From the NCBI GenBank assembly GCA_965218235.1, contig OZ244595.1, forward strand, positions 1,062,561 through 1,126,560: DNA of 64,000 bases. The letters run 5' to 3'. The translations under genes were made by a program, and so were the position numbers. The number at the start of each line of letters is the position of its first letter. Positions within the stretch are counted from its first letter, which is position 1. The notes beneath the pieces were generated by a model. The model did not search any database and was not told the DNA's origin. It worked only from the letters and a program-made list of their open reading frames with translations. This document shows, in pieces, positions 11,435 to 40,339 of the stretch. Origin of the DNA: Thermomicrobiales bacterium. GTDB lineage: Bacteria; Chloroflexota; Chloroflexia; Thermomicrobiales; UBA6265.

Positions 11435-11620
11435 CTCGCTGGAGCGTTCGCCGGACAGAGTGCATTACTCGTAGGGGATAACGTCTGGGCCCCTGCCAAA
11501 GCCGATGGCCACCCCCGCGCTGGCTCCGATACCTCCCGCGCCAGGCAGGAGTTCGGCTTAACAGCCAGCACGAGCTTCGAGGATGGACTACGTGGAACGA
11601 TCGATTGGTACGAGGAGTGC
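11435..11620 (+). pseudogene. Relic of the 3' end of a second, diverged fcl gene
   Basis: Translation ...[45 protein letters not shown] aligns with the fcl C-terminus [46 protein letters not shown]. Shared nucleotide blocks are GATACCTCCCGCGC, GAGTTCGGCTT, ACGAGCTTCGAGGATGGACT and GATTGGTACGA. No upstream Rossmann part is present. Confidence 0.65.
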
Positions 11621-11666
11621 CTCGATGAGAGTTCGATCCGGATGCAGGACTCACTGGACAAACGTC

Positions 11667-12272: not shown

Positions 12273-12385
12273 CTGATAGTGCATACCCCGTGCCCCTCAG
12301 TCCGAGCGTCTGATGCTGTTCTGGCTCGCGAGACCACGGTAGAGAGATCACATCGGAACTGGAGAGCTAGCTAAGCAAAAGGGAG

Positions 12386-13072: not shown

Positions 13073-13109
13073 TTCTTCTTAGTGTGAACAAATCGTCGGA
13101 TCCGATAAC

Positions 13110-15902: not shown

Positions 15903-17113
15903 AGCCACTACCGCGTGTTGTCTACTGGAACAATATCCCTAGTCCGTATGTGGTCGGGAGATTCAATGCCGTGGCGCGGCGTGGGAACATTGACCTCCAA
16001 GCGTGGTTCAACTCGCGTACGAATCCTGATCGAAGTTGGGATGTAATTGAAAGCCACTGGGAGTTTCCCGCGCGATACATTCCGTCCGTCCAGATCGCTG
16101 GGCAGTCGCTGCACTTGCCCTTCGCCGAGCTGCGTCAGTCGCAACCAGATCTGGTAATCTGCCTGTATAACCCGGTGTCGTTTGCGCTAGGAAGCGTCGG
16201 AATGGCCGCAAGCGGAGTTCGCTTCGCCTATCGTGTGCTCCCTACATACGGCAGCTGGGTGCGTCGCTCGACCGCCAAGGAGCTTTCGAAGAAGTTGCTT
16301 TTCCGCTTGGCCGATGCAGCGAAAGTACCTGGCCCGGAGGGCGCTGCTGTTGCTCTGCGTTACGGAGTTCCCGAAGAGCGGATTTTTGCCGTTCGCCAGT
16401 CCGTCGACGTGGATCACTTTGCGACGGCATCTGACGTGCCGGTCGTCGTACGTCGTAAAGAACGAGATCGCAGAGCCCTTCATGGATGCGTCTTCATCTA
16501 TGTTGGAAGACTCTGGCGGGGTAAAGGCCTCGATTACCTGTTTGACGCATTTGACCAAGTCCGCCAACACAATCCGGAAACTTCGCTGCTGATTGTAGGA
16601 GACGGCATTGACGAGGGACGCTATCGGACGCAGGCGAGGCAAAATCCGAATATCCACTTCGAGGGATTTGTGCAGCCAGCAGATATGCCGTCGATGTACG
16701 CGCTTGCGGATGTCTGTGTGTTCCCTACGCTTGGAGATCCTCACGGATTAGTGACGGAAGAGGCAATGGCTGCTGGGCTTCCTGTGATCGTTACGGAAGC
16801 GGCGGGTGACATTGATCGACGGTTACCGGACGGTGAGGCAGGTTTCATCGTTCCGCCGAGGTCAGCAGACGCCCTCGCTGCCCGAATGCTGGATCTCGCG
16901 AATGACGCTTCTATACGCCACCGATTTGCCCGATGCGGTCAAACACTGGTCTCATCACGTACACATGATGAATATGCGCTTGATCTTGAGGTTATGGTTG
17001 ATCGCGTTTTGTCTCTCCCCCGACGACGGCAACCCAGTCCAATAAACTCCCTGGCCTTCCGCTCCTTGCATACAGGCTTACGGCGGGATCCGGCACCTAT
17101 GGTGAGTCGATGA
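15887..17113 (+). CDS. GT4-family glycosyltransferase
   Basis: C-terminal GT-B motif FPTLGDPHGLVTEEAMAAGLPVIVTEAAG. An alternative start at 15899 gives an ATGA overlap with the upstream stop. Confidence 0.8.
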   Translation: MEKPMKPLPRVVYWNNIPSPYVVGRFNAVARRGNIDLQAWFNSRTNPDRSWDVIESHWEFPARYIPSVQIAGQSLHLPFAELRQSQPDLVICLYNPVSFALGSVGMAASGVRFAYRVLPTYGSWVRRSTAKELSKKLLFRLADAAKVPGPEGAAVALRYGVPEERIFAVRQSVDVDHFATASDVPVVVRRKERDRRALHGCVFIYVGRLWRGKGLDYLFDAFDQVRQHNPETSLLIVGDGIDEGRYRTQARQNPNIHFEGFVQPADMPSMYALADVCVFPTLGDPHGLVTEEAMAAGLPVIVTEAAGDIDRRLPDGEAGFIVPPRSADALAARMLDLANDASIRHRFARCGQTLVSSRTHDEYALDLEVMVDRVLSLPRRRQPSPINSLAFRSLHTGLRRDPAPMVSR

Positions 17114-18378
17114 GCGCGAAGGTGTTTTCGTCTGCGGGTCGCGATCAACCACCCGAGGTGAGGATGTCGTGGAAGCACGAATCGGAACAAGCAGGGTTGC
17201 GCGTACTGCAAGTGGTGCCTTCAGTTGGGATAAGCGAGGGAGGACTCGCTGTAGTCGTCGTTGAGCTTAGTGACGCCCTCCAACGCGCCGGAATGGCGGT
17301 GCAGATAGTTACGACGAACTCCGCCATACCCGGGCGTTCGGGGCAACCCCGCCGAAGCGTTGCAGAAACGGACTTGCCTTATGGCGCCGAAAACCTTGAC
17401 ATCCGTTACTTCCGAGTGCGGAGACCCTATCGCTTTCTGTTCGCCCCCGATATGGCGCGCGCGCTGAACACTTCGATCAGTTCCTTCGATCTTGTGCACA
17501 TCCATGGAATATGGAGCTTCTGCGCGCGTGCAAGTTGGAGAGCAGCCAGGCGCGCCGGCGTACCGATCGTCGTCTCTACACATGGGATGCTCGATCCATT
17601 CTTACTTGGCCGAGGAAGGGCGCAGAAGTTCATTGCACTAAACGAGTGGGTTCGACCGATGTTGCAAGGCGCCGCAGCCATTCATTGTACTTCGGAGCTC
17701 GAACACGACCAGATCTCCTCGTTTGCTCCTAACACCCAGCGCGCCGTGATTCCGAATGGTTTTCATCTCGACAGACTTGCCGTAGCGGCCGACTACGGCT
17801 CGTTTCGGCGCGAAATGGGAATCGGGGAGTCCTCGGCCATAGTGCTCAATCACGGTCGGCTCTCATATAAAAAGGGTTTGGACGTTCTTTTACGCGCATT
17901 CGCGAGGGTTTGTGACCAAGTCCAAGATTGTCGCTTGGTTCTTGTAGGTCCAGATGATGAGGGGATTCGAGCCGAACTTGAGGCACTGGCGAGCGATTTA
18001 GGGATCGGAAATGACGTTATATTCACGGGCGAGCTTTCCGGCGCAAAGCTGGCTAACGCGATTGCCGCTGCGGACGTGTGGGTACTCACTTCACACGCGG
18101 AAAACTTCGGAATGGCGGTCGTCGAGGCGATGTCCGCCGGTAAACCAACGGTGATTTCGAGTGCCGTCAATATAGCTCAGGATGCTGAGCAAGCGGGCGC
18201 TACTCTGAAAGTTGATGTCGATGCGAATGCTGCAGCATCGGCCATCGTCGAGTTGCTCAACGATCAAGAATTGAGCCGTGCCATTGGCCGCAGAGCGCGC
18301 CGGTTCGTCGAGCGATTCGATTGGGGAAAGGTTTCTGATCAATACATCTCGCTTTATCGGGAAGTAAGTGCCCGATGA
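17110..18378 (+). CDS. GT4-family glycosyltransferase
   Basis: LRVLQVVPSVGISEGG N-terminus. SHAENFGMAVVEAMSAGKPTVISS. An alternative start at 17164 (MSWKH) sits behind GAGGTGAGG. Confidence 0.8.
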   Translation: MSAKVFSSAGRDQPPEVRMSWKHESEQAGLRVLQVVPSVGISEGGLAVVVVELSDALQRAGMAVQIVTTNSAIPGRSGQPRRSVAETDLPYGAENLDIRYFRVRRPYRFLFAPDMARALNTSISSFDLVHIHGIWSFCARASWRAARRAGVPIVVSTHGMLDPFLLGRGRAQKFIALNEWVRPMLQGAAAIHCTSELEHDQISSFAPNTQRAVIPNGFHLDRLAVAADYGSFRREMGIGESSAIVLNHGRLSYKKGLDVLLRAFARVCDQVQDCRLVLVGPDDEGIRAELEALASDLGIGNDVIFTGELSGAKLANAIAAADVWVLTSHAENFGMAVVEAMSAGKPTVISSAVNIAQDAEQAGATLKVDVDANAAASAIVELLNDQELSRAIGRRARRFVERFDWGKVSDQYISLYREVSAR

Positions 18379-18406
18379 TGTCCGGCGCCGATAGTGCGCC
18401 GGACAT
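18378..18406. terminator. Perfect 11-bp stem hairpin right after the GT4 stop (possible terminator or attenuator, no U-tract)
   Basis: ATGTCCGGCGC-cgatagt-GCGCCGGACAT. Confidence 0.35.
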
Positions 18407-18532
18407 AGCAACCGAAGGAGTAGAAGGGTGTAGCCGAGAAGAATCCCATTTCATACTCGTGGCTCAACTGGCATTCAGAAACGGCTACTCCTAGCTCACC
18501 CGATTCGTAAGTACCCCAAGGAGACCTACAAC

Positions 18533-19642
18533 ATGGACCTTAACGGAAAGAACGTTGTTCTTGTATCAAGCTGGTCACAAAACATCGGCAACGCTTTCTT
18601 CAGTGTGTCGGGACGATGGATCATGGAACAGGCGGCCCCTGGCGCACGTGTCACATGGTTTCAAGACCAGCCCGGATATCGCACGTTTCATAACCAAACT
18701 AGGGGAAATCCTCAAAACCATGCGAGTCTGATCGCATCCCTCGATGTTGATTACCTCGTACTTCAGGGCCCGATGCTGACCTCCACCTTCCGCGCTATTT
18801 GGGAACCTTCGTTCCGTGCGCTGCGGGAGCGCGGCACCAAGATCGTGCTCCTTAGTGCCGGACTTTTCCGATACACCTCTGAGGAGATCGCTTCCGTGCG
18901 CGAATTCTTGTCCGAGTATCCGCCGGCCATCTTGGCGACTCGCGACTCAGTGACCTATTCTCACTTCCACGACCTGTGCGAAATATCCTACGACGGTATT
19001 GAGAGCGCGTTCTGCATTCCAGATGCTTATCAACCGCCCAAGATTGACTATCCTTCGTTTGCGGCGGTTTGCTTTGACCGCTATCCGGAGCCAGAGATTG
19101 TTATCGGCGGTCAGCCCTCACCATCCGCGCCAAATGGACGTAGCGGCAGCTTCGAATTCGAGGACGCGACCTGGAACTGGACGTTTCCACGGATCCCGTA
19201 CTTGCTCGCGAAGAAGGGACAAGGCGTTGCCTATCTCGGGGCTATGGCAGACCGAAGAAAGTCAATGCCTAACGCGTTGAATGGATTGGCAATCTTGCGA
19301 CCCGAGCACCGCACGAACCCTTTCATTGGTTGGAAAGTGTATCGCCGTCCCGGCGCAGTGGCCACGGATGAGCCGTATACCTATCTAGCCACGTACGCCA
19401 ATGCGGAGTTGACTCTAACTGATCGCGTCCACTCGGGCGTAGTTGCATTGGCGTACGGAACGCCGGCGATGCTCTTTGGAGCGACCCCGCGGGATGCACT
19501 CTTCGAGCGCATGGGAATCGCTGACATTCGGCGTCACCCGGTTACGCTTCCTGAAGAGCAGCGTGTGGCTGAGCGAGAAAAGCTGGTCGATTTCCTTCGA
19601 AGCGGACTTGAACGGCTCGAATCCCGGGGCCAAAGAAGCTAA
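18533..19642 (+). CDS. Polysaccharide pyruvyl transferase family protein (tentative)
   Basis: N-terminal NIGNAFF, mid RDSVTY and C-terminal LTDRVHSGVVALAYGTPAMLF resemble the PS_pyruv_trans pattern. RBS AAGGAGA lies upstream. Confidence 0.55.
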   Translation: MDLNGKNVVLVSSWSQNIGNAFFSVSGRWIMEQAAPGARVTWFQDQPGYRTFHNQTRGNPQNHASLIASLDVDYLVLQGPMLTSTFRAIWEPSFRALRERGTKIVLLSAGLFRYTSEEIASVREFLSEYPPAILATRDSVTYSHFHDLCEISYDGIESAFCIPDAYQPPKIDYPSFAAVCFDRYPEPEIVIGGQPSPSAPNGRSGSFEFEDATWNWTFPRIPYLLAKKGQGVAYLGAMADRRKSMPNALNGLAILRPEHRTNPFIGWKVYRRPGAVATDEPYTYLATYANAELTLTDRVHSGVVALAYGTPAMLFGATPRDALFERMGIADIRRHPVTLPEEQRVAEREKLVDFLRSGLERLESRGQRS

Positions 19643-29983: not shown

Positions 29984-32416
29984 ATGTCGATTCCGCGACC
30001 CGCCCGGACCGCGAGGACGACCCAAACGCCAGTTGTGCCGTGGAACGGACTGACCATCGCTCCGCTACCGGTCGCCCTGACCCCGATGATCGGTCGCCAG
30101 CACGAGATCGCGGTCGTCACCGGACTTTTTCAGCGCGGAACGTCCCGCCTCGTGACGCTGACCGGGCCGGGCGGGATCGGCAAGACGCGCCTCGCGATCG
30201 ATCTCGTTCATCATCTCCAGACCGAGCTCCGCTGTCAGGTCGCCTTCGTCCCCCTCGAGGCCATCCGACGTCCCCAGGACGTCGTTCCCGCGATCCTCGA
30301 GGCGATCGGCCTCAGCGATCAGGGGCTGATCGACCCTCCGGCGTACCTCGTGTCGGCCCTCGTCCACGCCGAGATGCTAATCATCATTGACAATTTCGAG
30401 CAGGTCCTCGGGGCGCGAGGCAACCTCGCCGAACTCCTGGCCGCCGCTCCTCGCGTGCGGCTGCTCGTCACCAGCCGGTCCCGCCTGCGACTGCGCGGCG
30501 AGCACGTCGTTCACGTCCCGCCACTGGGGTTGTCGGAGCTGGCCGAACCGGGCCCGGCTGATCCCGAAGCGCCTGGCTCGGACGCGGTGCGCCTGTTCGT
30601 CGAGCGGGCCACCGCGGCGGTCTCAGGACTGAGCGTCTCCGGGGCAGAGGCCACGCTGATCGCGAGCATCTGCCGCCGGCTGGACGGGGTACCGCTGGCG
30701 ATCGAGCTCGCCGCCGCCCGGGTGACGCACCTGTCGCTCGCGATGCTCGACCAGCGACTCGGCCGGAGCCTCCCGCTGCTGATCACGGGTGCCGAGGACC
30801 TGCCGGAGCGCCACCGGACCCTCCGGGACACCATCGCCTGGAGCTACGATCTCCTGACGACCAGCCAGCAGCGCATCTTTCGGCAGGTGGCCGTCTTCCG
30901 GGGCGGCTTCTCCCTGGAGGCGGCCGAGATGGTCATGGGCGAGACGCCGGAGGCCTCGTCACTGGACACGGCGGTCCTCGACGGGTTGCAGACCCTGGTC
31001 GAGGCCAGTCTCGTCATCCACGCGACTGAGGCGGGCGGGGAGTCGCGCTACAGCACCCTGGAGACGATCAGCGAGTTCGCTGGCGAGGTCCTGGCCGCCG
31101 CCGGGGCGCTCGATTCGGCACGGCAGCGCCACGCGGACTGGTATCTCGTGTTCGCCGAATCGCGGGAGGTTCGGCCGTTCAGCCCCGAGGCGACGGAGCG
31201 ATCCCGCCAGCTCGCCGGCGAGCAGCCCAACATGATCGCGGCGATCGAATGGTTCGAACGCACCGGCGATCGAGTTGGTTTCGCCCGGCTGGTCGCGGCG
31301 CTGAGCTGGTCCTGGTGGCTTCGGGGGGAATGGCGATCCGGCCAGCCGTGGCTGGGTCAGGTCTGGGACGATCCGGAGATCCGGGGATCGCTTGCCCCCA
31401 CCGCGCTGACGTCGGTTGGGGTGGCGCTCGGTTTGATCTCGGCGGCCGGCTCGGACGATGTGCCGCGCTCGAAGGAGATCCTGGAAGTTTGCCTGGTCCT
31501 CGTTCGAGCCCGGGGCGATGCGCTCGGCATGATCTGCGCCCGGATCGGGCTGGGCTGGGTGACGGGGATGACCGGTGAAATGGACGCCGGCGCCCGGCAC
31601 CTGGAGGAGGCACTCCGGCTCGCGCGGGAACTACCGGCCTCGCGAATGGCGTCCTCCGTAATGGGGGTCATCCTGAACAATCTCGGCGCTGTCTATCGCT
31701 GGGCCGGTCGATATGACGATGCCGCGGCGGTGCTCGATGAGGGACGTGGCCTCCTGGTCGAGGCGAACAACTCGACCGCGGTCCTTTTCAACCTGATCGA
31801 CCGCGGCTATCTCGCGCGGGACATGGGACGGTACGCGGACGCCGCCAGCCTGTTCGCGCAGGTACTCGGTCCCGCTCGCGGGATCGGTGACCGGCGCTAT
31901 CTGCTCGGTGTGCTGGAGGGGATGGCGACCGTCGCCGTCGCCACCGGAGACCATGTCCGGGGCGTCCGGCTGCTGGCGGTCGTCGAAGGAGAGTACCGAA
32001 CCTTCGGAATGACTGGCCACACGCCGAAGGATCGAACGCAACGTGAGGACGCCACTGCCGCGGCCCGGACGGCCATGGGCGATGAAGCGTACGAGAAAGC
32101 TGAGAACGAGGGCGTCCAGCTGTCCATCGACCAGGCCATGGTCCTGGCCAGCGAGCCGAAGCCGATCGCTGTGGGCGTCCGACCGCCGGAACCGGGTCTT
32201 CTGACCCGCCGCGAGACCGAGCTCCTCCAGCTTCTCGCCGGCGGGCGCACCAACCGGGAGATCGCGGAGAGCCTGTTCATCGGGGAGCGGACGGTCGAGA
32301 GCCACCTCGAGCGCATCTACGCCAAGCTCGGTGTCCGGCGGCGACTGGCCGCGATCGCGGCCGCCAACCGTCTTGGTCTGCTGGGTCCGGCGTCGAACCG
32401 GGAGGACCCGAGCTAA
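29984..32416 (+). CDS. Large ATP-binding LuxR-family regulator (NB-ARC/AAA + TPR-like + LuxR HTH)
   Basis: P-loop LTGPGGIGKTRLA. Long helical repeat region. C-terminal LTRRETELLQLLAGGRTNREIAESLFIGERTVESHLERIYAKLGV. Confidence 0.85.
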   Translation: MSIPRPARTARTTQTPVVPWNGLTIAPLPVALTPMIGRQHEIAVVTGLFQRGTSRLVTLTGPGGIGKTRLAIDLVHHLQTELRCQVAFVPLEAIRRPQDVVPAILEAIGLSDQGLIDPPAYLVSALVHAEMLIIIDNFEQVLGARGNLAELLAAAPRVRLLVTSRSRLRLRGEHVVHVPPLGLSELAEPGPADPEAPGSDAVRLFVERATAAVSGLSVSGAEATLIASICRRLDGVPLAIELAAARVTHLSLAMLDQRLGRSLPLLITGAEDLPERHRTLRDTIAWSYDLLTTSQQRIFRQVAVFRGGFSLEAAEMVMGETPEASSLDTAVLDGLQTLVEASLVIHATEAGGESRYSTLETISEFAGEVLAAAGALDSARQRHADWYLVFAESREVRPFSPEATERSRQLAGEQPNMIAAIEWFERTGDRVGFARLVAALSWSWWLRGEWRSGQPWLGQVWDDPEIRGSLAPTALTSVGVALGLISAAGSDDVPRSKEILEVCLVLVRARGDALGMICARIGLGWVTGMTGEMDAGARHLEEALRLARELPASRMASSVMGVILNNLGAVYRWAGRYDDAAAVLDEGRGLLVEANNSTAVLFNLIDRGYLARDMGRYADAASLFAQVLGPARGIGDRRYLLGVLEGMATVAVATGDHVRGVRLLAVVEGEYRTFGMTGHTPKDRTQREDATAAARTAMGDEAYEKAENEGVQLSIDQAMVLASEPKPIAVGVRPPEPGLLTRRETELLQLLAGGRTNREIAESLFIGERTVESHLERIYAKLGVRRRLAAIAAANRLGLLGPASNREDPS

Positions 32417-32442: not shown

Positions 32443-33804
32443 TCAGGGAGTTGGGAACGGGTCTCCCGCGGGCCATTCAGTCACAGACGCCGCGGCGCCG
32501 ACCAGGGCCGGACGCAGGGCGCCAAAGAACCCGAGGACATCGGCCGGAAGCGTGTTGGTCAGGAACGACAGCGTTAGCCCGGCGTCGTTGCGGAGCAGGA
32601 AGGCGGCGGTCGAGCCACCGAGGGCGCCGGTGTGGGCCCATTCCCGGCCGAGCGGACCGTCCTGGACGACCCACGCGAGGCCGGTCGCCGGCTCCGTATT
32701 GGCGGCTCCGTTGGCCCCCGTGAACGGCGCGTGCGGCGCGGTCAGCATCTGGTCGATGGTCTCGGGCGCCAGCAGGGCTGGTCCGGCCTGGCCGTCGATC
32801 GCGCCGGCGTAACGAACGAGATCGGCGGCCCGGGCGATCCAGCCGCCGTGGGCGTCCATGCCGTCCAGGAAGAAACTGCCGTAAGCGAACGGGCCGAAGC
32901 CCTCGCCAGGAAAGACCGACGGAACGGCCGGAGGGTACTCCGGGGGAGCGTAGTAGAGCACCTCGCCCTCGGCCCGCTCCGACCGGCGGGTCTTGCCCAG
33001 CACCATGTCGGGAATCCCGGCCGGCGCGAGGACCTGCTCCTGGATGTGGGTCTCGTAGCTCTGGCCCGAGACCGTCTCCAGCACGCGACCGAGGACGTTG
33101 AAGCCGAAGTTGCTGTAGACGGCCATCGTGCCGGGCTCGTAGTCCAGCCCGGAGCCAAGCATGAACCGGACGATCATCTTGGCCGATGCGGGCCCAGGCT
33201 CGCCGAACGTCGCGGCCGCCAGCTGGGACAGCGGCAGGTACTGCGGGTCGCCGGAGACGGGTGCGTTCCAGCCGCCGGCGTGGATCAGGACCTGCCCGAC
33301 CGTGACCGTGGCCATGATCGGGTCCACATACGCGCCGGTCGGTGCCTCCAGATCGAGCAGCGGAAAGACCGCATCGTCAAGCGACAGCTGGCCCGCTTCG
33401 ACGAGCCGCATGATGCCGACGGCGGTGATCGTCTTGGTGACGCTGGCAATCCGGAAGCGGTGCCCCGGCTCGACTGGCTCCAGGGCGTCCCGATCGGCAT
33501 AGCCATACCCGCGATTCAGGACCAGGCGGCCCGCGTAGCCGACGGCGAGCTGGGCGCCGGGCAATCCCCAGGTGGCGACGAGATCCCGCATGGCGGCATC
33601 GAGGGCGGCCAGTTCCGGCACCTCCTCGCCGGAGACCGGAACGTCGCTGGCCGTGGGCGTTCCGGGCTCAGGCGTCGCGCTGGTTCCGGCCGCCCAGGCG
33701 GGGTGGCGACCGACACCGGCGAGGGCAACCCCGGCTGGGATGGCCGCGACGGCGGTGCGCCTGGTGATCCGGGTCCTGGACAAGGCCTTCATCTCGTGGG
33801 TCAT
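32443..33804 (-). CDS. Secreted serine hydrolase, beta-lactamase/DD-peptidase (class C-like) family
   Basis: Tat-like leader RITRRTAVAAIPAGVALAGV. SxxK is FRIASVTKT, YxN is VYSNFGFN, and HTG is present. Confidence 0.8.
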   Translation of the reverse strand: MTHEMKALSRTRITRRTAVAAIPAGVALAGVGRHPAWAAGTSATPEPGTPTASDVPVSGEEVPELAALDAAMRDLVATWGLPGAQLAVGYAGRLVLNRGYGYADRDALEPVEPGHRFRIASVTKTITAVGIMRLVEAGQLSLDDAVFPLLDLEAPTGAYVDPIMATVTVGQVLIHAGGWNAPVSGDPQYLPLSQLAAATFGEPGPASAKMIVRFMLGSGLDYEPGTMAVYSNFGFNVLGRVLETVSGQSYETHIQEQVLAPAGIPDMVLGKTRRSERAEGEVLYYAPPEYPPAVPSVFPGEGFGPFAYGSFFLDGMDAHGGWIARAADLVRYAGAIDGQAGPALLAPETIDQMLTAPHAPFTGANGAANTEPATGLAWVVQDGPLGREWAHTGALGGSTAAFLLRNDAGLTLSFLTNTLPADVLGFFGALRPALVGAAASVTEWPAGDPFPTP

Positions 33805-33854: not shown

Positions 33855-35108
33855 TCAGGCGACCGGTGTGGCGACCGGGGTTCCGGTGGTCGTCGCGAAG
33901 CGATCTGGGAAGAGCATCTGGATGATCTGGATGAAGATCGGGTCGGCGCTGCCGCCGTCGTTGTTGGCCCGGTTCGTAACGATCACGACCGTGGCGTCCT
34001 CCTCCGGCGCGTGGACCATCCAGGAGCTGTAGCCGAAGATCCCGCCGCTGTGGCCGATCAGCCCGTTGACCTCCAGAATGCCGAGACCGTAGCGCACGTC
34101 CAGCACCTGGCCGGGGAAGACACCCCAGGTCAGCCGCTCCCGCTGGGTCGCCGGGCTGAGGATGGTACCGTCGGCAAGCGCCTTCGCCCAGACCCGCAGG
34201 TCGGCCAGCGTCGAGGTCATCGCCCCGGCGGTCCAGGGGACGTAGGGATTGGACGCGGTCATGTCGCGCAGGGTCGCGCCGGGAACTGCGGCCTCATAGC
34301 CGCGCACGAACGGCTCGGGCAGATCGGGCGTGGTCGGGAAGACGGTGTTCGTCAGGCCGAGGGGCCGGATGATGCGCTCGGTGATCGCCACGTCGGCCGT
34401 CTGACCGGTGATCTGCTCGATGACCAGTCCGAGCAGGACGTAGTTGCTGTTGGAATACTGGACGTGGTCGCCGGGCGCGAAGTCGGCCGGGTACTGCCGT
34501 ATGATCTCGACCGCGTTCTGCGGCGTGAATTCCATCAGCGGGTCGAGCTCGTAGTTGGCGGAGAGGATCGGGTCCTCGACGAAATCGAAGATGCCGCCGG
34601 TCATGCCCAGAACCTGACGGATGGTGATCCGGTCGCCATTGGCGATCCCCGGCACGAACGACTCGAGGACGTCATCCAGACCGAGCTTGCTCTCGTCGAC
34701 GAGCTGCAGGATCACCGTCGCGGTGAATGTCTTGGTGATGCTTGCGATCCGGACGTGGTCGTCGAGGGTGACCGGGACGGCGGTCGCCAGGTCCCTGATC
34801 CCGGCCGCGTAGGTCCAGGCGCCCCGGCCAGGATACCAGATGCCGACCATCGCCCCCGGCGTGTTCGTCTGAGCCAGGCCGGACTCGACGATCGTCGTCA
34901 GCGCGAGCTGCTCCTCCGGCCTGAAGCTCGTCTCTTCGGTGGTGGCGATCGGGGTGGCGTCCTGCGCGGTCACGGCGTTCCGTGCGTCGCCGAGGGGCGA
35001 GAGCGCGACAGCGACGATTCCGGCCAGGCCGCCGCCCAGCGCGACCCGGCGGGTCATCTGATGTCCGGTGCGACGTCTGAGCTCGGCGACGGGAAGTCGT
35101 GGATGCAT
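33855..35108 (-). CDS. Secreted serine hydrolase, beta-lactamase family (paralog of the neighbouring gene)
   Basis: VRIASITKTF (SxxK), QYSNSNY (YxN) and GHSGG. The track ORF extends to 35204; I prefer the ATG at 35108 or 35057 ahead of the RR leader. Confidence 0.8.
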   Translation of the reverse strand: MHPRLPVAELRRRTGHQMTRRVALGGGLAGIVAVALSPLGDARNAVTAQDATPIATTEETSFRPEEQLALTTIVESGLAQTNTPGAMVGIWYPGRGAWTYAAGIRDLATAVPVTLDDHVRIASITKTFTATVILQLVDESKLGLDDVLESFVPGIANGDRITIRQVLGMTGGIFDFVEDPILSANYELDPLMEFTPQNAVEIIRQYPADFAPGDHVQYSNSNYVLLGLVIEQITGQTADVAITERIIRPLGLTNTVFPTTPDLPEPFVRGYEAAVPGATLRDMTASNPYVPWTAGAMTSTLADLRVWAKALADGTILSPATQRERLTWGVFPGQVLDVRYGLGILEVNGLIGHSGGIFGYSSWMVHAPEEDATVVIVTNRANNDGGSADPIFIQIIQMLFPDRFATTTGTPVATPVA

Positions 35109-35433
35109 GGTCGTGGTGGTCCTCGCTGGCTTGCCGGGCGGTGCCGGCAATGGTCGGTCCCTGAGCGCGCCGCGGTTCGACCGGGACCGGCTCCCGCGCG
35201 GCAAGGGCGGCCGTTGGGTCGCCAGCCAGGGCGGCTACACACAGGATAGGGAGCGCGCGTGACATTGGGATGCCGTAGAAATACGGAATCGCCAGCCAGC
35301 CGGTACGGAATCGCCGGACCCGCCTTGCCGGGGCGTGAGCCGGGGTCGGGGTATCGAACGGAAACGGAGCCGGCACAAGGCGTGTGCGCGGCTCCGCTGG
35401 GGGACTCTTCGACTGGAGCGGGGTGCCGTCGCG

Positions 35434-36930
35434 TTACTCGACGACCTCGACGGTGCCCATCATGCCCGCGTCCTCGTGGCCGAGGATGTGGCAGTGGTAG
35501 ACGAACTTGCCGGTGAAGTCGGTGAAGCGCGTGCGGATGACGATCTCCCCGCGCGGTGGGATCGGTGTCGTGTCCTCGTAACTCCGTGGCACCGTCCGGC
35601 CGTTGATGGTCATGACCTGGAAGTCGTTGACATGGATGTGGAACGGGTGCCACTCCGGGCTGGCGTTCTGGATCACCCACTCCTCGAGCGTTCCGAGCAG
35701 CACCGTCTGGTCGATCCGGTCCCCGACGAAGGCCTTGTCGTCGATCGCGAAGTTGGGCGCGGTGCTGTTCTCCTGGAAGACGATCGTCCGCTGGCCGTCG
35801 ATCGGCGACGTGCTGAAGTCCTCGCGGTCGATCAGCGTCGTTGGGAGTGCCGCGGGCTCGACCGGCGCTCCGGAGGAGATCAGCGTGGCGACGAGGAACT
35901 CCGGCTGGGCCTGGCTCGGGATGTCTTCCGCCCAGACGATCGAGCGCAACTGATAGATCCCGGCCGCGCTGCCCTGGATCAGGAACTCGCCCCGCTCGCC
36001 CGGCCCCAGGAGCAGGGTCTCGGTCGTCCTCGCCTCGGGAAACGGGTTGCCGTCGGTGGCGATCATATGGAGCTGGTGCCGGGCGAGCTGGAGGTTGTAG
36101 AAGCCGTTGGCGCTCGCGTTGAGTACCCGCCAGCGCTGGGTCTCACCGGGCTGGATGTCGATCTTCGGGTTGATCTGCCCGTTGACGAGATACTGCGTCT
36201 CCCCGCCGGCGTCGCGGAACGGACCCTGAAGGACAAGCAGACGCTCCTTGACGCCGGCGATCCCCGGCAGGTCGTCAAGCCCGCCAGTGACGACGATTGC
36301 TCCGGCCAAACCAGCCGAGACCTGGGCAGAGGACATGCCGTGGGCGTGCGGGTGATACCAGTAGAGGCCCGGCGGGTGGTCGAGCGGGATGTCATAGGCG
36401 TAGCCAAACGTCTGGCCCTTCTCGACGTGGAGGAAGACATTGTCGCCGTTGTCGCTCGGCGAGACGTGCATGCCGTGGACGTGCAGATTGGTCGTGCCGT
36501 CGTCCAGCCCATTGACCAGGGCGACTCTGAGTCGGTCGCCGGGAGAGACCCGGATCGTCGGACCCGGCAACGACTGCTCGTAGGCCAGACGGCCGGCGCC
36601 TCGGGCGGGATCGGGCTGAGCCTGGAGCGTGACGGCCAGGTAGCCGTCCTCGCTGGCCAGGATGGGCGGCTCAACGAAGCCATCCGCTGCCTCCGGCGTA
36701 CCCGCCAGATTGGCAATTGGTGTTGAGACACCGGCTCCGTGGTGTGCTCCAGCCACGGCCTCGGCCGTGGGTGTGCCGCCCGTGCCGGCCAGGGTGTTCG
36801 CCTCCGACCCCAGCCAGCCGACCGTGGCGGTGGCCAGCGCGGCGACCGCGGCACCGGTCAGGTGCCGACGACTCAGGGTCGGTTGCCACGGTTCGACCTC
36901 TGTTGGCTCTGCCGTTCTGACGCGATCCAT
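35434..36930 (-). CDS. Tat-exported multicopper oxidase (laccase/CopA-like)
   Basis: Leader SRRHLTGAAVAALATATV. All four Cu motifs are present: LHVHGMH, WYHPHAHG, HPFHIHVNDF and HCHILGHEDAGMM. Confidence 0.85.
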   Translation of the reverse strand: MDRVRTAEPTEVEPWQPTLSRRHLTGAAVAALATATVGWLGSEANTLAGTGGTPTAEAVAGAHHGAGVSTPIANLAGTPEAADGFVEPPILASEDGYLAVTLQAQPDPARGAGRLAYEQSLPGPTIRVSPGDRLRVALVNGLDDGTTNLHVHGMHVSPSDNGDNVFLHVEKGQTFGYAYDIPLDHPPGLYWYHPHAHGMSSAQVSAGLAGAIVVTGGLDDLPGIAGVKERLLVLQGPFRDAGGETQYLVNGQINPKIDIQPGETQRWRVLNASANGFYNLQLARHQLHMIATDGNPFPEARTTETLLLGPGERGEFLIQGSAAGIYQLRSIVWAEDIPSQAQPEFLVATLISSGAPVEPAALPTTLIDREDFSTSPIDGQRTIVFQENSTAPNFAIDDKAFVGDRIDQTVLLGTLEEWVIQNASPEWHPFHIHVNDFQVMTINGRTVPRSYEDTTPIPPRGEIVIRTRFTDFTGKFVYHCHILGHEDAGMMGTVEVVE

Positions 36931-36981: not shown

Positions 36982-38586
36982 TCAGGGTGTGACGACGACG
37001 GTCGCCTGCATCGCCGGGTCGGTGGTGCTGGTGTAGGCAAAGGTGCCGGCGGAGTCGAAGGCGTGGACCCACTCCTCGCCTGAATCGAGCGTGCCGGAGT
37101 CGAACGACCCATCGGTTGCCGTGACGGAGTGCGGACCGCTGTCGAGGTTGGTCCAGGTCACGATTCCGCCAGCCGTCACCTCGATCTGGGCGGGGGTGAA
37201 GGCGTTGCCCTGAATCAGGACGGCCAGCGACGCGATGCCCGGCTTGCCGCCGGGGTCGTCGGTCGTCGCGTTCGGCGCGGCGCCAGTCTCCGGAGTGGCG
37301 TCGGTCGTTGCCGGAGTGGTCTCCGGCGAGGCGGCCGGGACGGTGTCCGGCGTCCCCTCGGCGGAGACGGGCGGAGCGCAGGTCGAGCCGGCGAACAGAC
37401 CGGTCGGCATCGTTACCGGCCCGGCCAGCGTCGGATCGATTCGGACGATCCCGCCCAGTTCGCCGTCGGTCGCGATCGCCGGCATCGAGACGTAGAGCCC
37501 ATTGTCCGGCCCGAGCGCCATCGAGATCGGGAAGTCCATTCCCTCCACGACGACGTCGAGGCTGGCCGGTCCGGTCTGCCGGACGAGCCGGCCGGTGTTC
37601 GGCAGGATGTTGGGTTCAGTCGTCTGGTTGCCGGTCGCCATCTCCAGGGCGAAGAGGGTGCCGTCGGGCGTCACCGCCAGCCCGGTCACCGTCGTGAGCC
37701 CGGTCCAGAAGTCACTGACCGTGCCGTCCGGCTCGACCTTGATGACCTTGGCGGTCCCATCGATGTGCGGCGACGAGGTCAGGAAGCCGACGTAGACGCC
37801 GCCGTCCGGCGCAAGGGCGATTGCGGTCGGGACCGGGTGACCCTCGGAGATATCGGCCAGGACGCCGACCGTCCCGCTCGTCTCGACCCGAAGCAGCAGC
37901 CCCTGGTTGGCGTCGATGACCAGGAACCCACCGTTCCACGGCACCATGGCGAACGGCTCGCCCAATTCGAGGACGTGGTAGAGGTTGCTGGCCGGGTCCG
38001 CCGCGACGTAGGTGGAGAGGTCGCTCACCAGTCGGACGCCGCCATTCGGGGTGCGGGCGTAGAGGCCGTTGGGGAAGTCCGGCCCGACCGCCTCGTAGCC
38101 GCCCGTGGCGTCCTGCAGGATGTAGAGCTCCCCGTCGAGCATCGCCACGCCGACCGGCCCCTGGACGTCGCTGTACGGGTCCTGGGTGGAGGGTAATCCC
38201 GTCACGACCGGCGTGCCGCAGCCATCGATGATCTGAACGACGCTCGCCGACGTTCCGGTCAGCGTCGGACCCAGCACCTGATCCTCGGGCGAGGCATCCG
38301 TCGAGGTCGTGATCGTCGTTCCGCCGCTACCGGCCAGGGCAACGTAGAACTCGCCGTCCGGCCCCCAGGCGAAGCCGCGGGGATTCGCCAGCCCGGTGGC
38401 CGCGACGACGATCTCGCCGAGGCCGGCCCCTGGAGTGGCTTCGGGCGTTCCACCCGGTGTCCCTTCGGGCGTCGCGCTCTGCGTCGCGCTCAGCGTTGCG
38501 TCCCCGATCCCGGCTGCGACCACGGCGGCACCGGCCACGCCGACGAGACTTCGCCGGTTGAGCGACCCTGACATTCGAGAACTCAC
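36982..38586 (-). CDS. Secreted ScyD/ScyE-like beta-propeller fused to a C-terminal cupredoxin-like domain with a degenerate Cu site
   Basis: Tat leader NRRSLVGVAGAAVVAAG. Propeller blades GLANPRGFAWGPDGEFYVA, GLPS, ALAPDGGVYVG, LAVTPDGTLFA. The C-terminus TWTNLDSGPHSVTA...FAYTSTTDPAMQATVVV has Ser and Asp where its paralog has Cys and His. Confidence 0.7.
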   Translation of the reverse strand: MSSRMSGSLNRRSLVGVAGAAVVAAGIGDATLSATQSATPEGTPGGTPEATPGAGLGEIVVAATGLANPRGFAWGPDGEFYVALAGSGGTTITTSTDASPEDQVLGPTLTGTSASVVQIIDGCGTPVVTGLPSTQDPYSDVQGPVGVAMLDGELYILQDATGGYEAVGPDFPNGLYARTPNGGVRLVSDLSTYVAADPASNLYHVLELGEPFAMVPWNGGFLVIDANQGLLLRVETSGTVGVLADISEGHPVPTAIALAPDGGVYVGFLTSSPHIDGTAKVIKVEPDGTVSDFWTGLTTVTGLAVTPDGTLFALEMATGNQTTEPNILPNTGRLVRQTGPASLDVVVEGMDFPISMALGPDNGLYVSMPAIATDGELGGIVRIDPTLAGPVTMPTGLFAGSTCAPPVSAEGTPDTVPAASPETTPATTDATPETGAAPNATTDDPGGKPGIASLAVLIQGNAFTPAQIEVTAGGIVTWTNLDSGPHSVTATDGSFDSGTLDSGEEWVHAFDSAGTFAYTSTTDPAMQATVVVTP

Positions 38587-38627
38587 GGATCCCTTCCTCC
38601 TTCGCTGCTCGCGCGACCTGTTCGGGG

Positions 38628-40196
38628 CTACTGGACGACGATGGTGGCGACCATGTTCGGGTGGTAATTGCAGTGGTAGGCGACGCTGCCGGCTGTCGTG
38701 AAGGTGAACGTGAAGGTGGCGCCCGGTGCCATGTTGCCCGAGTCGAACGAGCCGTCATCGGCCGTGACCGTGTGCGCGGCGGTGTCGTTGTTGGTCCAGG
38801 TCACGGTAGTGCCGGCCGCGACCTGGAGTGAGGTCGGCGCGAAGGCGTAGTTGATCAGGGAGACAGCCGAGCCGCCGTCCGCGGGCGCCGCGCTTCCGGA
38901 GTCCGATCCGGCCGGAGTCGCCGTTTCCGACATGTCAGGCGTGTCCGGCGTGGCCGTGGGGGTGGGCGTCGCGACGGCTCCGGGACACGTCGAAGTTGCC
39001 AGCAGTGAGTCGCTCATCGTGAGCGTCTCGCCCTGGCTGAGGTTGAGCCGGACGATCGCTCCCATCGCGCTGGTCGGGCCGAAGGCCGGGGTGGCGACGT
39101 AGAGACCACCGTTCGGGCCGAACGCCATCGCCACCGGCCGGTCCAGCCCCGTCGCGATGTCGACCGATTCGGCGGGTCCGGTCTGGCGGACGACCTTCCC
39201 GGTCCCGGCCTCCGCGAACGGCGGCGTATCCGTATTGCCCGTGCCCATCTCAAGCGCATAGAGCGACCCGTCGGAGCCGACGGCGACACCCGTCACCGCG
39301 GTCAGACCGGTCCAGACGTCGGTGACCATCCCGTCGGGCGTGACCTGGACGATCTTCGAGTCGCCATCCGCGTAGGGCGCGGACGTCAGGAAGCCGACGT
39401 AGAGCGACCCGTCGGGCGCCAGCGCGAGCCCGCTCGGAACCCGGTGCGTGCCAGTGGAAAAGTCGACGAGACGGGTGATCGTTCCATCGGTCGTGACTCT
39501 GAGTAACTGGCCGCTGTTGGCCTCGACCAGCCAGAGTTCGTCGTCGCCAGCAACCATCGCGAACGGATCGCCGTCCGGGCTGTAATCGCCGGGCACCACC
39601 GACACGGGATTCGACGCCATCCAGGCGCTGAGGTCCGCGACCAGTTCGGCGCTGCCATCCCCGTCGAGCGCGTAGACGCCGTTGGGCGTGCTCGGGTTGT
39701 CATTGCTCGGTCCGCCCCCGGCGATCGCGACGTAGACCCGATTGTTGAGCAGGGCGACCGCGGCGGGCCCGCGAACGCTGCCAGTCGTTCCGCGCGTCGA
39801 GGGCAGGTCACCTTCGAAGGCGACTGGGCAGCCCCCATCGACGTAGGAGACGGATCCTGTCAGGCCGCCACCCGCCGGTGCCATCCCACTCGCGACCGGG
39901 GTCGCCCCGATCGGGGGCAGCCCGCCCGATCCGCCTTCCGTGACGTAGAACGAGCCGTCGGCGCCCCAGGTGAAGCCACGGGGATTTTCCAGACCGCTGG
40001 CCGCGAGCGTGATGCCCTCGGTCGAGACCACCGGTGTCGCCTGCTGGGCGAGGACGGCCAACGGGGTCGCCAGGAGGAGGAGACTGATGAGGGCCATTGC
40101 GACACCGGCCCATCGCGACCGTCTGACGTTCACGTTCACTCCTTCTGGCGAGCAGACAGACAGCAAGGGACGGTTTGGACTGGACTGTCGTTGCAC
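38628..40196 (-). CDS. Secreted ScyD/ScyE-like beta-propeller fused to a type-1-copper cupredoxin domain
   Basis: Signal peptide. Same propeller blades as the paralog (GLENPRGFTWGADGSFYVT, LPSTRG, LALAPDGSLYVG). C-terminal TWTNNDTAAHTVTA...VAYHCNYHPNMVATIVVQ gives a complete His/Cys/His/Met ligand set. Confidence 0.75.
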   Translation of the reverse strand: MQRQSSPNRPLLSVCSPEGVNVNVRRSRWAGVAMALISLLLLATPLAVLAQQATPVVSTEGITLAASGLENPRGFTWGADGSFYVTEGGSGGLPPIGATPVASGMAPAGGGLTGSVSYVDGGCPVAFEGDLPSTRGTTGSVRGPAAVALLNNRVYVAIAGGGPSNDNPSTPNGVYALDGDGSAELVADLSAWMASNPVSVVPGDYSPDGDPFAMVAGDDELWLVEANSGQLLRVTTDGTITRLVDFSTGTHRVPSGLALAPDGSLYVGFLTSAPYADGDSKIVQVTPDGMVTDVWTGLTAVTGVAVGSDGSLYALEMGTGNTDTPPFAEAGTGKVVRQTGPAESVDIATGLDRPVAMAFGPNGGLYVATPAFGPTSAMGAIVRLNLSQGETLTMSDSLLATSTCPGAVATPTPTATPDTPDMSETATPAGSDSGSAAPADGGSAVSLINYAFAPTSLQVAAGTTVTWTNNDTAAHTVTADDGSFDSGNMAPGATFTFTFTTAGSVAYHCNYHPNMVATIVVQ

Positions 40197-40339
40197 TCTA
40201 TCCGCGAAACGACAATACCGTCAATAGCTACGCGTATGACGTTCGTACTGTCCTGCTCGGCCGCTCGATCCTCCCGCCGGAGGACGGCTCGTCCTGAGCC
40301 GGTTCTGACGATCAGCGGCTGGTGCTCCCAGTGCCGTCC

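Follow-up and report, generated by a model that had tools for sequence, protein, structure and literature searches.

Three adjacent genes of a Thermomicrobiales bacterium form an operon that we read, with a probability of about one half, as a secreted copper-dependent oxidase system of the Thermomicrobiales/Chloroflexota. Two of the genes, A and B, encode paralogs that join a propeller of the ScyD/ScyE family to a cupredoxin domain, and the third encodes a multicopper oxidase. The blue copper of A would act as an electron relay, and the cupredoxin of B, which lacks two of the four copper ligands, would be structural.

Operon layout and the oxidase

The genes lie on the minus strand in a tight operon, within the 64,000-nucleotide stretch of DNA that was analyzed, here called the window (Table 1). 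An earlier note on this DNA had described A and B as tandem paralogs, and both reading frames are present as such, with 43% identity over 486 residues by BLASTP (E = 3e-107); the note overlooked the multicopper oxidase gene directly downstream of B, which is a third conserved partner. Other neighbors in the window encode beta-lactamase-family proteins and NmrA-like and cupin proteins. Gene A most likely starts at the GTG at 40133, giving a product of 501 residues, instead of at 40196 as first proposed, since a Shine-Dalgarno sequence (GAAGGAG) lies at 40145-40139, a −10-like box at 40200-40195 overlaps the start of the longer reading frame, and the 501-residue product is found identically in public gene calls.

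Table 1. Features of the operon, with window positions and the basis or state of each.
Feature	Positions	Strand	Basis or state
Promoter-like site before gene A	40195..40224	-	TTGACG, 18-nt spacer, TAGAGT; consensus match only
Gene A, 501 aa: signal peptide, six-bladed ScyD/ScyE-family propeller, disordered linker, intact type-1 copper cupredoxin	38628..40133	-	ORF, profiles, AF2
A propeller, residues about 38-385	38979..40022	-	family-wide core residues retained
A linker, residues about 386-419, Pro/Thr/Ala-rich	38877..38978	-	predicted disordered; pLDDT <50 for 389-420
A cupredoxin, residues 420-501, full ligand set	38631..38876	-	PF00127 and alignment
Gene B, 534 aa: twin-arginine-type N-terminus, ScyD/ScyE-family propeller, disordered linker, cupredoxin fold without two of four ligands	36982..38586	-	ORF, profiles, AF2
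B propeller, residues 58-405	37372..38415	-	subfamily pocket entirely retained
B linker, residues 406-449	37240..37371	-	predicted disordered; pLDDT <50 for 420-448
B pseudo-cupredoxin, residues 450-534	36985..37239	-	pLDDT 89-97
Three-domain multicopper oxidase, 498 aa	35434..36930	-	Pfam domains and motifs in the translation

Both propeller proteins are full-length members of NCBIfam NF033206 ("ScyD/ScyE family protein"), A scoring 169.7 bits over model positions 3-332 of 333 and B 177.4 bits over positions 2-333, against a curated cut-off of 80. Their AF2 models have mean pLDDT values of 85.6 for A and 82.6 for B (pTM 0.82 for the latter). Judged by eye only, the N-termini of B (LNRRSLVGVAGAAVVAAG) and of the oxidase (LSRRHLTGAAVAALATA) are of the twin-arginine type, and that of A (VRRSRWAGVAMALISLLLLA) looks more Sec-like.

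The oxidase scores above the Pfam cut-offs in all three domains (PF07732, Cu-oxidase_3, 82.5 bits; PF00394, Cu-oxidase, 53.6; PF07731, Cu-oxidase_2, 86.1) and carries the four copper motifs HVH, HPH, HPFHIH and HCHILGHEDAGM, of the pattern HxH, HxH, HxxHxH and HCHxxxHxxxxM; inspection of its sequence by eye revealed no Met-rich insert. It shares three cupredoxin domains and all copper motifs with the laccase-like multicopper oxidase of Thermus thermophilus (2xu9; 5.6e-65, three newer "Laccase" entries being slightly ahead), from which it differs in being genetically coupled to propeller-cupredoxin proteins, and in a set of relatives physically fused to one. The operon could in principle be a copper homeostasis or resistance module, with a CueO-like cuprous oxidase and periplasmic copper-binding proteins, and some copper resistance systems do include cupredoxin-like proteins; we hold this to be highly improbable. 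CueO (NF008205 equivalog) is the best NCBIfam match of the oxidase, yet it was rejected, with a score of 133.5 bits where the cut-off is 525, and the Thermus enzyme, the closest oxidase structure, can be counted on the side of resistance as well. However, neither the P-type ATPase motif DKTGT nor the heavy-metal-associated motif GMTCxxC occurs in the 64-kb window, and none of the contexts examined shows a recurring efflux gene or copper-responsive regulator; a resistance role would also leave unexplained why the propeller has a conserved pocket and why it was duplicated.

The cupredoxin domains of A and B

The cupredoxin is an amicyanin-type domain carried on a disordered tether of 35 to 45 residues. 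With the family profile, the closest solved relatives are 9cck (1e-28) and amicyanin (3e-19), both electron-transfer domains, and A has the His...Cys-x2-His-x2-Met spacing of amicyanin and of the tethered nitrite reductase cupredoxin (9cck, 6hbe), which is likewise an electron-transfer module tethered to a catalytic protein. The window domains differ from these in sitting on a six-bladed NHL-type propeller, not on nitrite reductase or beside a separate dehydrogenase, and B also has substitutions at the Cys and at the second His.

In A the ligand set is complete: His454 (38772-38774), Cys488 (38670-38672), His491 (38661-38663) and Met494 (38652-38654). The C-terminus ...VAYHCNYHPNMVATIVVQ, with AAHTVTA upstream, reads exactly as quoted in the earlier note, and the domain passes PF00127 at 33.2 bits (Pfam gathering cut-off, 21.2). 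The B protein ends, likewise just as quoted there, ...FAYTSTTDPAMQATVVVTP, with GPHSVTA upstream. Here the DNA and an alignment to amicyanin and 9cck agree with the proposed substitutions: Ser520 (AGC, 37029-37027) falls under the ligand Cys and Asp523 (GAC, 37020-37018) under the C-terminal ligand His, which we take to be the solvent-exposed one, while the first His (His486, 37129-37131) and the Met (Met526, 37009-37011) are retained. There is no Cys anywhere in the domain. It falls below the cut-offs of PF00127 (18.8 bits against 21.2) and PF13473 (22.0 against 27) but is recognizably the same fold, matching 9cck with E = 3.8e-13 and having a pLDDT of 89 to 97. With the Cys and C-terminal His ligands lost, the B domain is, on its residues, unable to form a blue-copper site. 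The loss is not a sequencing error, as judged from the nine closest homologs (75 to 96% identity), whose independent assemblies all have Ser in place of the Cys and either Asp or Asn in place of the His.

Searches at E ≤ 0.001 returned 616 homologs with B as the query and 900 with A, and the propeller-cupredoxin fusion is common in Thermomicrobiales/Chloroflexota MAGs. The suggestion that it is an uncharacterized architecture thus stands as to function, for which nothing characterized was found in full-text literature searches, but not as to rarity; the source labels are only "ScyD/ScyE family protein" or "plastocyanin". By sequence comparison, A and B descend from one propeller-cupredoxin protein. 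His-Cys-His-Met is present in 118 of 134 propeller-cupredoxin relatives, and His-Ser-Asp/Asn-Met in ten sequences that make up a single clade, nested in the tree among B-type proteins with intact sites. The A-type partners in the tree have intact ligands in 43 of 44 cases, the exception (P0061) being apparently frameshifted at its C-terminus. This placement bears out the proposal that the ligands were lost after duplication. Further independent losses occur in the B clade, in P0017 (His to Phe), P0018 (Cys to Asp) and P0019 (His to Pro), so that across relatives the B cupredoxin ranges from intact through ligand-dead, a state reached at least four times separately, to deleted.

Copper-free cupredoxin folds that have lost their ligands and persist as structural or docking domains are known in quinol oxidase subunit II (CyoA) and FtsP/SufI. 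The B-type loss differs in being recent, in being traceable within one clade and accompanied by an intact paralog from the same operon, and in forming a graded series (intact, ligand-dead, deleted). Whether the domain still has a role is the point at which a second explanation enters, namely that it is a neutrally decaying relic on its way to the deletion seen in sister lineages. The repeated independent losses fit decay, as does the absence of the whole domain from all 27 propeller-only proteins (about 375 residues), which are B-like by 123 to 208 bits and include those at loci L011 and L095. The cupredoxin dN/dS, based on four sequences and 82 to 85 codons, is also somewhat higher in B (0.19 to 0.35) than in A (0.11 to 0.24). 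Nonetheless, these B values are far below 1 and lower than those of the adjacent linker (linkers 0.22 to 0.79 overall; 0.22 to 0.67 in A and 0.32 to 0.79 in B; propellers 0.08 to 0.24), the structure model predicts a well-folded domain, and the replacement residues are conserved in the 75 to 96% identical orthologs (Ser in 10/10, Asp or Asn in 10/10), in company with the correlated changes Tyr462Asn and Tyr507Trp. A relic is therefore unlikely in our estimate; the models and substitution rates point to a cupredoxin fold kept under purifying selection despite the ligand loss.

The same residues speak to a conversion of the site to another metal or to non-blue copper, using His486, Asp523, Ser520 and Met526 and still serving in metal binding or redox chemistry. 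In favor of this, the first His and the Met never vary, the second His has given way to a carboxylate, and azurin mutants with Cys changed to Asp or Ser still bind Cu(II), in type-2 sites. On the other side, Asp alternates with Asn (in P0006 and P0007) and no His, Cys or Met has been gained; Tyr507Trp and the loss of the conserved Asn500 resemble cavity filling more than ligand replacement; and sister lineages have discarded the whole domain. A designed alternative site is further disfavored because elsewhere among B-type proteins it is other ligands that have been replaced, by Phe, Pro or Asp. We regard conversion as quite improbable, and the "altered-metal" half of the earlier description of B gains no positive support. 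The "non-redox partner" half tells half the story: the pocket of B is conserved and has acquired two invariant histidines, and it is the pocket of A that has changed.

Propeller pockets and genomic recurrence

Family-wide propeller residues were defined as those conserved in 37 to 63 of 65 distant representatives (in B numbering, R70, S133, D204, E/D225, N227, D245, S247, H250, D361, Y365 and R382). A keeps every one of them, and B departs only at D204, a position occupied by His in 48 of 48 B-type proteins. At the subfamily level, B retains the pocket residues Q142, Q158, D159, N173, E210, N227, H250, P251, D276 and N320, and five of these positions are altered in A (Q142R, Q158I, D159A, E210D and P251R in B numbering). 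The B-type-specific His204 (37975-37977) and His274 (37765-37767), alongside His250 (37837-37839), would place three histidines on one face of the propeller, as located from strand topology only.

Decay of the A pocket is greater in lineages in which the B cupredoxin is more degraded or deleted. At L006 both the B cupredoxin and the A propeller core are intact. In the window the B cupredoxin is ligand-dead and the A core still intact, with the five pocket positions altered, so that reciprocal decay is incomplete at this locus. At L007, where B has His changed to Phe, A carries H250D and N227G, and at L011, L093 and L095, where the B cupredoxin is absent, A lacks H250, N173 and N320 (L011 and L095 also lack Y274). 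The A cupredoxin is intact at every locus in this comparison. Since the B propeller keeps its pocket while that of A decays, B has probably lost just its electron-relay domain and retained its activity. The reciprocal decay of the B cupredoxin and the A pocket further suggests, by analogy, that each cupredoxin originally served the propeller of its partner, as in the head-to-tail dimer of N2O reductase.

In that enzyme (NosZ) the cupredoxin of one subunit feeds the propeller site of the other, an arrangement that would account for the reciprocal decay. NosZ likewise carries its propeller N-terminally and its cupredoxin C-terminally, and the Foldseek alignment spans the whole chains; the superposition is nevertheless poor (TM 0.24 to 0.31, rmsd 15 to 20 Å), which makes this an analogy and not homology. 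NosZ has seven blades, a multi-His CuZ site and a binuclear CuA site, in contrast to the six blades, lack of a multi-His cluster and mononuclear type-1 site of the A/B family. Another partial parallel, the superoxide dismutase-propeller lactonase of Deinococcus radiodurans (9m59; PMC12362111), is among the top Foldseek matches at low similarity (TM 0.37 to 0.39, 15 to 17% identity) and joins a six-bladed propeller to a copper-binding Greek-key domain, but that domain is a Cu/Zn superoxide dismutase, not a cupredoxin, and there is no oxidase partner.

The arrangement A-B-oxidase is found again, among unrelated neighbors, at L001, L002, L003-5, L006, L007/8, L011 and L095. In other lineages the propeller-cupredoxin protein is a single form, with a laccase-like multicopper oxidase beside it or fused to it. 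At L021 and L091/92 the oxidase gene immediately precedes that of the single propeller-cupredoxin, and oxidase-propeller-cupredoxin fusions make up 12 protein clusters (53 to 100% identity, 910 to 953 residues), the one junction inspected (L014) having no second signal peptide. Some family members stand alone, with no oxidase nearby (L009/10 and L094). Eleven single chains combine two propellers, one A-like and one B-like, with a lone cupredoxin, which follows the B-like propeller; the tether is so long that service within a chain and between chains is indistinguishable in these proteins. There are also the A-B fusions P0020, P0029 and P0306. Both domain orders, cupredoxin-propeller and propeller-cupredoxin, exist in the family.

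This tethering bears on a further alternative, in which the propellers are lyases, hydrolases or dirigent-like scaffolds for the substrate or product of the oxidase and the cupredoxin just tunes or feeds the oxidase. The closest folds of the propeller are indeed Vgb lyase, DFPase, SGL lactonases and PAL (TM 0.4 to 0.77, 9 to 19% identity), and in peptide amidation PAL works alongside a copper monooxygenase. None of the signatures of flavin, haem or PQQ turned up, and soluble PQQ-dependent glucose/sorbosone dehydrogenase (TIGR03606) was rejected on short, partial matches scoring 27.2 and 16.3 bits (cut-off, 434); the role of ScyE, moreover, is inferred from genetics only. An electron carrier tethered in both orders is, however, hard to square with a propeller outside the electron flow, and a laccase-type oxidase oxidizes small phenols with no need of a protein donor. 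We consider a scaffold role doubtful.

A possible electron route and the ScyD/ScyE family

In the oxidase-system reading that we prefer, a substrate would be held or oxidized in the conserved polar pocket on the top face of a propeller, and electrons would pass to the type-1 copper of the tethered A cupredoxin, from there to the type-1 copper of the oxidase, and through its trinuclear cluster to O2. A and B would form a heteromer that needs two propellers but for which one competent cupredoxin is enough. A would be turning into the electron-relay subunit; B would be the subunit with the conserved, remodeled pocket (His204/His250/His274), its copper-free cupredoxin perhaps retained for docking or structure. 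A bolder version, which we offer tentatively and at odds well short of even, makes the ScyD/ScyE propeller the true oxidative catalyst, with electrons leaving via protein-bound blue copper: B would be the catalyst, A the relay and the laccase-like enzyme the terminal oxidase, with transfer between subunits as in N2O reductase, and the operon would code for an extracytoplasmic oxidase of a new type. The three-His pocket of B might then be a mononuclear copper or zinc site.

Scytonemin is a cyanobacterial sunscreen, and we know of no solved structure, cofactor or assay for the ScyD/ScyE family. In Nostoc punctiforme, ScyD is dispensable, with a dN/dS of about 1, whereas ScyE is essential, and genetic evidence assigns it to the final, periplasmic oxidative dimerization of scytonemin (PMC4870267, PMC6282210). 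Like A and B, the two are secreted members of NF033206 encoded as a tandem pair in which one copy is under relaxed constraint. The window genes are not ScyE/ScyD proper: no scyABC(DEF) cluster surrounds them, no scy-like genes adjoin any A/B module in the contexts examined (the flanks are unrelated), and the host belongs to the Chloroflexota and is not a cyanobacterium. Both window paralogs are under purifying selection, unlike ScyD, and their decay is domain-specific and reciprocal. Compared by description, cyanobacterial ScyE is reported with a PEP-CTERM and no cupredoxin is mentioned.

These findings correct one annotation, since the "plastocyanin" label on the Cys-less orthologs is wrong. 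The A/B pair offers a natural subfunctionalization series in a two-domain protein, from intact to ligand-dead to deleted with reciprocal pocket decay, and such a series can show which active site each domain serves. The ScyD/ScyE propeller family is repeatedly wired to electron-transfer copper, with a cupredoxin at either end and a laccase-like oxidase adjoining or fused. These genomic associations are a separate line of evidence that the family has a redox role, and they name concrete partners. If the propeller is an oxidative catalyst, this would be the first mechanistic handle on ScyE, and the failure of the scy genes alone to yield scytonemin in E. coli (PMC6282210) would be explained by a missing copper oxidase or electron acceptor.

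Tandem propeller-cupredoxin genes beside a multicopper oxidase

The paralogous genes A and B and the multicopper oxidase gene downstream are head-to-tail minus-strand ORFs whose intergenic gaps, 41 and 51 bp long, contain no terminator-like site on that strand. A and B are 43% identical over 486 residues (E = 3e-107), and each matches the NCBIfam model "ScyD/ScyE family protein" over its full length (169.7 bits for A and 177.4 bits for B, with a cut-off of 80 bits) and carries a C-terminal cupredoxin. In the AlphaFold2 model of each, a disordered linker of ~30-45 residues connects a six-bladed propeller to a confidently predicted cupredoxin; the mean pLDDT is 85.6 for A and 82.6 for B (89-97 in the B cupredoxin). 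An assignment of the propeller to the PQQ-dehydrogenases was rejected, the matches lying far under the cut-off. The oxidase has three domains and all four copper motifs; its nearest long-studied solved relative is the Thermus thermophilus laccase 2xu9 (5.6e-65), with three newer "Laccase" entries ranking just ahead.

The earlier note began the upstream copy at the first codon of the longest ORF. The most likely start is a GTG that gives a 501-aa product: it has a Shine-Dalgarno GAAGGAG 5 nt upstream, the -10 box of the sole promoter-like site overlaps the start codon of the longer ORF, and public gene calls contain the exact 501-aa and 534-aa products for A and B. The N-termini of A, B, and the oxidase all resemble export signals; judged by eye, B and the oxidase have twin-arginine-like ones.

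Positions of features in the window and in relatives' loci (L-numbers; P-numbers are relatives' proteins)
Feature	Sequence	Positions	Strand	Remarks
A, longest ORF	window	38628-40196	-	ORF translation
A, most likely start	window	40133	-	GTG; 501 aa
Promoter-like site	window	40224-40195
B	window	36982-38586	-	ORF translation; 534 aa
Ser520 codon of B	window	37029-37027	-	AGC
Asp523 codon of B	window	37020-37018	-	GAC
Cys123, Cys403 of B	window	38218-38220, 37378-37380		A equivalents Cys102, Cys383
Third gene, three-domain multicopper oxidase	window	35434-36930	-	ORF translation
PF00144 hydrolases	window	32443-33804, 33855-35204	-	twin-arginine-like N-termini
STAND-type regulator	window	29984-32416	+	810 aa
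Regulator homolog	L006	1564-3891		42% identity, E = 2e-177
Regulator homolog	L095	888-3260		35% identity
Low-GC island	window	11583-19642	+	53-57% GC, background ~67%
Oxidase-propeller-cupredoxin chain	L014	4597-7344	+	one N-terminal twin-arginine signal; proteins P0176-P0186, P0188
B-like propeller in frame with oxidase	L093	6572-9142	+	856 aa

Several other features of the region were recorded. The STAND-type regulator, with an AAA/NACHT ATPase, TPR, and a LuxR/GerE HTH, has homologs beside the modules of L006 and L095 (the latter with its HTH N-terminal instead) and is a candidate for a dedicated operon regulator. The oxidase gene is followed immediately, on its own strand, by genes for two paralogous beta-lactamase-family serine hydrolases (PF00144), and a PF00144 gene fragment sits between the regulator and gene A in L006; since these hydrolases are missing from L002 and L003, their link to the module is uncertain. 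The low-GC island is a polysaccharide biosynthesis cluster that encodes a hexapeptide transferase, a methyltransferase, two GT4 glycosyltransferases, a pyruvyl transferase, and a 930-aa protein with a Polysacc_synt_3 flippase and a Wzy_C polymerase/ligase domain. Neither tRNA genes nor Rfam families at the gathering threshold were found across the 64 kb (window positions 1-64000).

With B as the query 616 relatives were found, and with A 900; most come from Thermomicrobiales, Sphaerobacteraceae, and Chloroflexia MAGs, and the names given in the sources are limited to "ScyD/ScyE family protein" and "plastocyanin." The latter label, given by JGI/IMG to the Cys-less B ortholog P0304, is a misannotation. 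The family is of modest size: among 1.84 billion proteins searched exhaustively with the B propeller, 2,254 representatives reached E <= 0.001 and 117 reached E <= 1e-30. In a scan of species-representative genomes, one search pattern fell within the cupredoxin domain, so most matches were to a cupredoxin alone and only ~14 loci had a propeller. Unassigned extensions of family members comprise BON, a T9SS sorting tail, a weak cupin, and unknown regions, and no cytochrome c was found in the members that carry them. Full-text literature searches for the propeller-cupredoxin architecture or for the name of the family found no relevant paper. The view that the fusion is uncharacterised thus stands with respect to function and literature, but the fusion itself is common.

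Loss of the copper site in B and the expendable cupredoxin

The copper ligands of A are His454, Cys488, His491, and Met494, and B has His486, Ser520, Asp523, and Met526 at these positions. The claim that B lost two of four type-1 ligands after duplication is confirmed: the codons are exactly as first read, and an HMMER alignment with amicyanin and 9cck, a nitrite reductase with a tethered cupredoxin used as a second reference, places the B Ser under Cys and the Asp under His, offering no other residues as ligands. As the cupredoxin domain of B is without any Cys, a type-1 site is impossible. His-Cys-His-Met is present in 118 of 134 propeller-cupredoxin relatives, and His-Ser-Asp/Asn-Met is present in 10, namely B and the nine homologs nearest to it (75-96% identity). 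These ten form a single clade in a neighbour-joining tree, which carries no bootstrap support values, and the clade is nested among intact B-type proteins (P0010-P0016), so the loss was inherited and followed the duplication. A and B are therefore secreted paralogs with tethered cupredoxins, of which that of B is unable to bind blue copper.

Members of the ligand-dead clade also have correlated changes around the vacated site in common, namely Tyr462Asn, Tyr507Trp, and Tyr522Thr/Ser together with the loss of Asn500, and no new His, Cys, or Met was gained there. With no new ligands and with Asp and Asn alternating, an altered-metal site in B is improbable. The suggestion that one copy became a non-redox or altered-metal partner is right for the B cupredoxin and reaches no further than that domain. 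The B clade accounts for three more independent ligand losses, those of P0017 (His to Phe), P0018 (Cys to Asp), and P0019 (His to Pro). The ligand set is intact in 43 of the 44 A-types in the tree; in the remaining one, P0061, the C-terminus seems to be frameshifted. Outside the A/B pair, the 538-aa P0087 of a single-type clade (proteins without A/B pairing) has independently undergone Cys-to-Ser and His-to-Tyr changes.

The B cupredoxin is the expendable part of the pair. All 27 propeller-only proteins (~375 aa) are B-like, by 123-208 bits, and in L011, L093, and L095 such a protein is encoded between the A-type gene and the oxidase. Eleven single chains have one cupredoxin and two propellers, of which one is A-like and one B-like, and propeller-cupredoxin-propeller and propeller-cupredoxin-propeller-cupredoxin chains were found too; what recurs is a stoichiometry of two propellers, different in kind, with at least one working cupredoxin. 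Other members have the cupredoxin at the N-terminus (P0310, P0364, P0400, and P0437) or one propeller followed by two tandem cupredoxins (P0120 and two others), and from these arrangements the domains were joined more than once or reshuffled.

Such repeated losses and deletions are what would be seen if the B cupredoxin were a neutral relic, decaying without a remaining role. This is nevertheless unlikely given the conserved replacement residues and the pairwise Nei-Gojobori dN/dS values, which for four orthologous operons, a small sample with 82-85 codons per cupredoxin domain, were 0.19-0.35 for the B cupredoxin, 0.11-0.24 for the A cupredoxin, 0.08-0.24 for the propellers, and 0.22-0.79 for the linkers. 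The copper-less domain is thus still under purifying selection, with only mild relaxation.

Propeller pockets across the locus series

We compared the propellers of 70 single-type, 43 A-type, and 48 B-type proteins (B numbering throughout). The single-type proteins strongly conserve a polar set comprising Q142, Q158, D159, N173, D204, E210, E225, N227, S228, Q230, H250, P251, Y274, D276, and N320, which by strand topology would lie in the D-to-A and B-to-C loops, on the face that holds the active sites of six-bladed enzymes. All 48 B-types keep Q158, D159, N173, E210, N227, H250, P251, D276, and N320 and have the fixed changes D204H, Y274H, E225D, and Q230L; the two new His bring their number to three (204, 250, and 274). 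The pocket of A-type propellers has drifted.

Gene order, B cupredoxin, and A propeller by locus
Locus	Gene order	B cupredoxin	A propeller
L006	A-B-oxidase	intact	core intact
Window	A-B-oxidase	two ligands lost	core intact, 5 pocket positions changed
L001, L002, L003-5	A-B-oxidase	ligand-dead
L007/8	A-B-oxidase	His to Phe	L007: H250D, N227G, N173S, N320G
L011	A-B-oxidase	absent	H250, N173, N320, Y274 lost
L093		absent	H250, N173, N320, Y274 lost
L095	A-B-oxidase	absent	H250, N173, N320 lost; Y274 kept

Decay of the B cupredoxin and of the A pocket is reciprocal and graded across lineages. His250 is missing in 30 of 30 A-types of the subgroup that includes L011, L093, and L095; a propeller-only B partner was verified directly for three of these A-types and is suggested, by contigs of matching length only, for seven more. 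Clearly degenerate A-types are found only as partners of propeller-only B or of P0017-type B. A dead pocket in the window's A was rejected, since this protein keeps the family-wide core; B has His for D204, widely conserved in distant family members. The place of the window in the series makes it an intermediate stage.

A Cys pair lies elsewhere in the propeller and may form a disulfide joining the blade-1 hairpin to the propeller end. It is near-invariant in single-type proteins (66-69 of 70), A-types, and B-types with a cupredoxin, and both Cys are gone in most or all propeller-only B-types.

Partnership with the oxidase and a proposed electron path

The three genes are found in the order A, B, oxidase at loci whose flanking genes are entirely different, and in another clade a single propeller-cupredoxin gene directly follows the oxidase gene (L021 and L091/92). 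Twelve protein clusters from NCBI, ENA, JGI, and Logan (53-100% identity, 910-953 aa) carry oxidase, propeller, and cupredoxin in one chain; the name given is "ScyD/ScyE family protein" in one source and "suppressor of ftsI" in others. In L014 the mature propeller begins directly after the oxidase C-terminus and no second signal peptide lies between them, which argues against a read-through artefact. The L093 ORF was not taken as a fusion: it keeps the internal twin-arginine signal of the oxidase and was treated as a probable frameshift or read-through caused by an indel in a long-read assembly. Some family members stand alone, without an oxidase nearby. Coupling to the laccase-like oxidase is conserved; the oxidase is a true partner, and the unit is three genes.

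In the mechanism we propose, the propeller pocket would bind or oxidise a substrate, the type-1 copper of A would relay electrons to the oxidase, and the oxidase would reduce O2. A and B may act as a heteromer in which the dead cupredoxin of B would be retained for a structural or docking role. That a dead cupredoxin is paired with a decaying pocket in the other paralog would be expected had each cupredoxin first served the propeller of its partner. In the N2O reductase dimer, CuA likewise serves CuZ across subunits; whole chains aligned to NosZ by Foldseek superposed poorly. Service within a chain is also possible, given the long tether and the single cupredoxin after a B-like propeller in some chains.

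The nearest folds would suit a non-redox propeller, acting as a lyase, hydrolase, or dirigent-like scaffold, but the repeated fusions to cupredoxins, in both orders, make this rather unlikely. A copper homeostasis or resistance module is very unlikely, as the genes have neither a copper pump nor a chaperone motif nor a copper regulator beside them: P-type ATPase and HMA motifs are missing from the 64-kb window, and no copper regulator recurred in the contexts examined. For the proposed redox role, ScyE is essential and periplasmic and has been assigned by genetics to oxidative dimerisation, and its paralog ScyD is dispensable and relaxed (PMC4870267, PMC6282210); this fits a redox role for the family and is not proof of it.

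Each part belongs to a known family, and their combination and reciprocal decay are not described in the literature searched. The larger result is a widespread, uncharacterised three-part copper system built on the ScyE family, in which A and B form a clear evolutionary series of subfunctionalisation.
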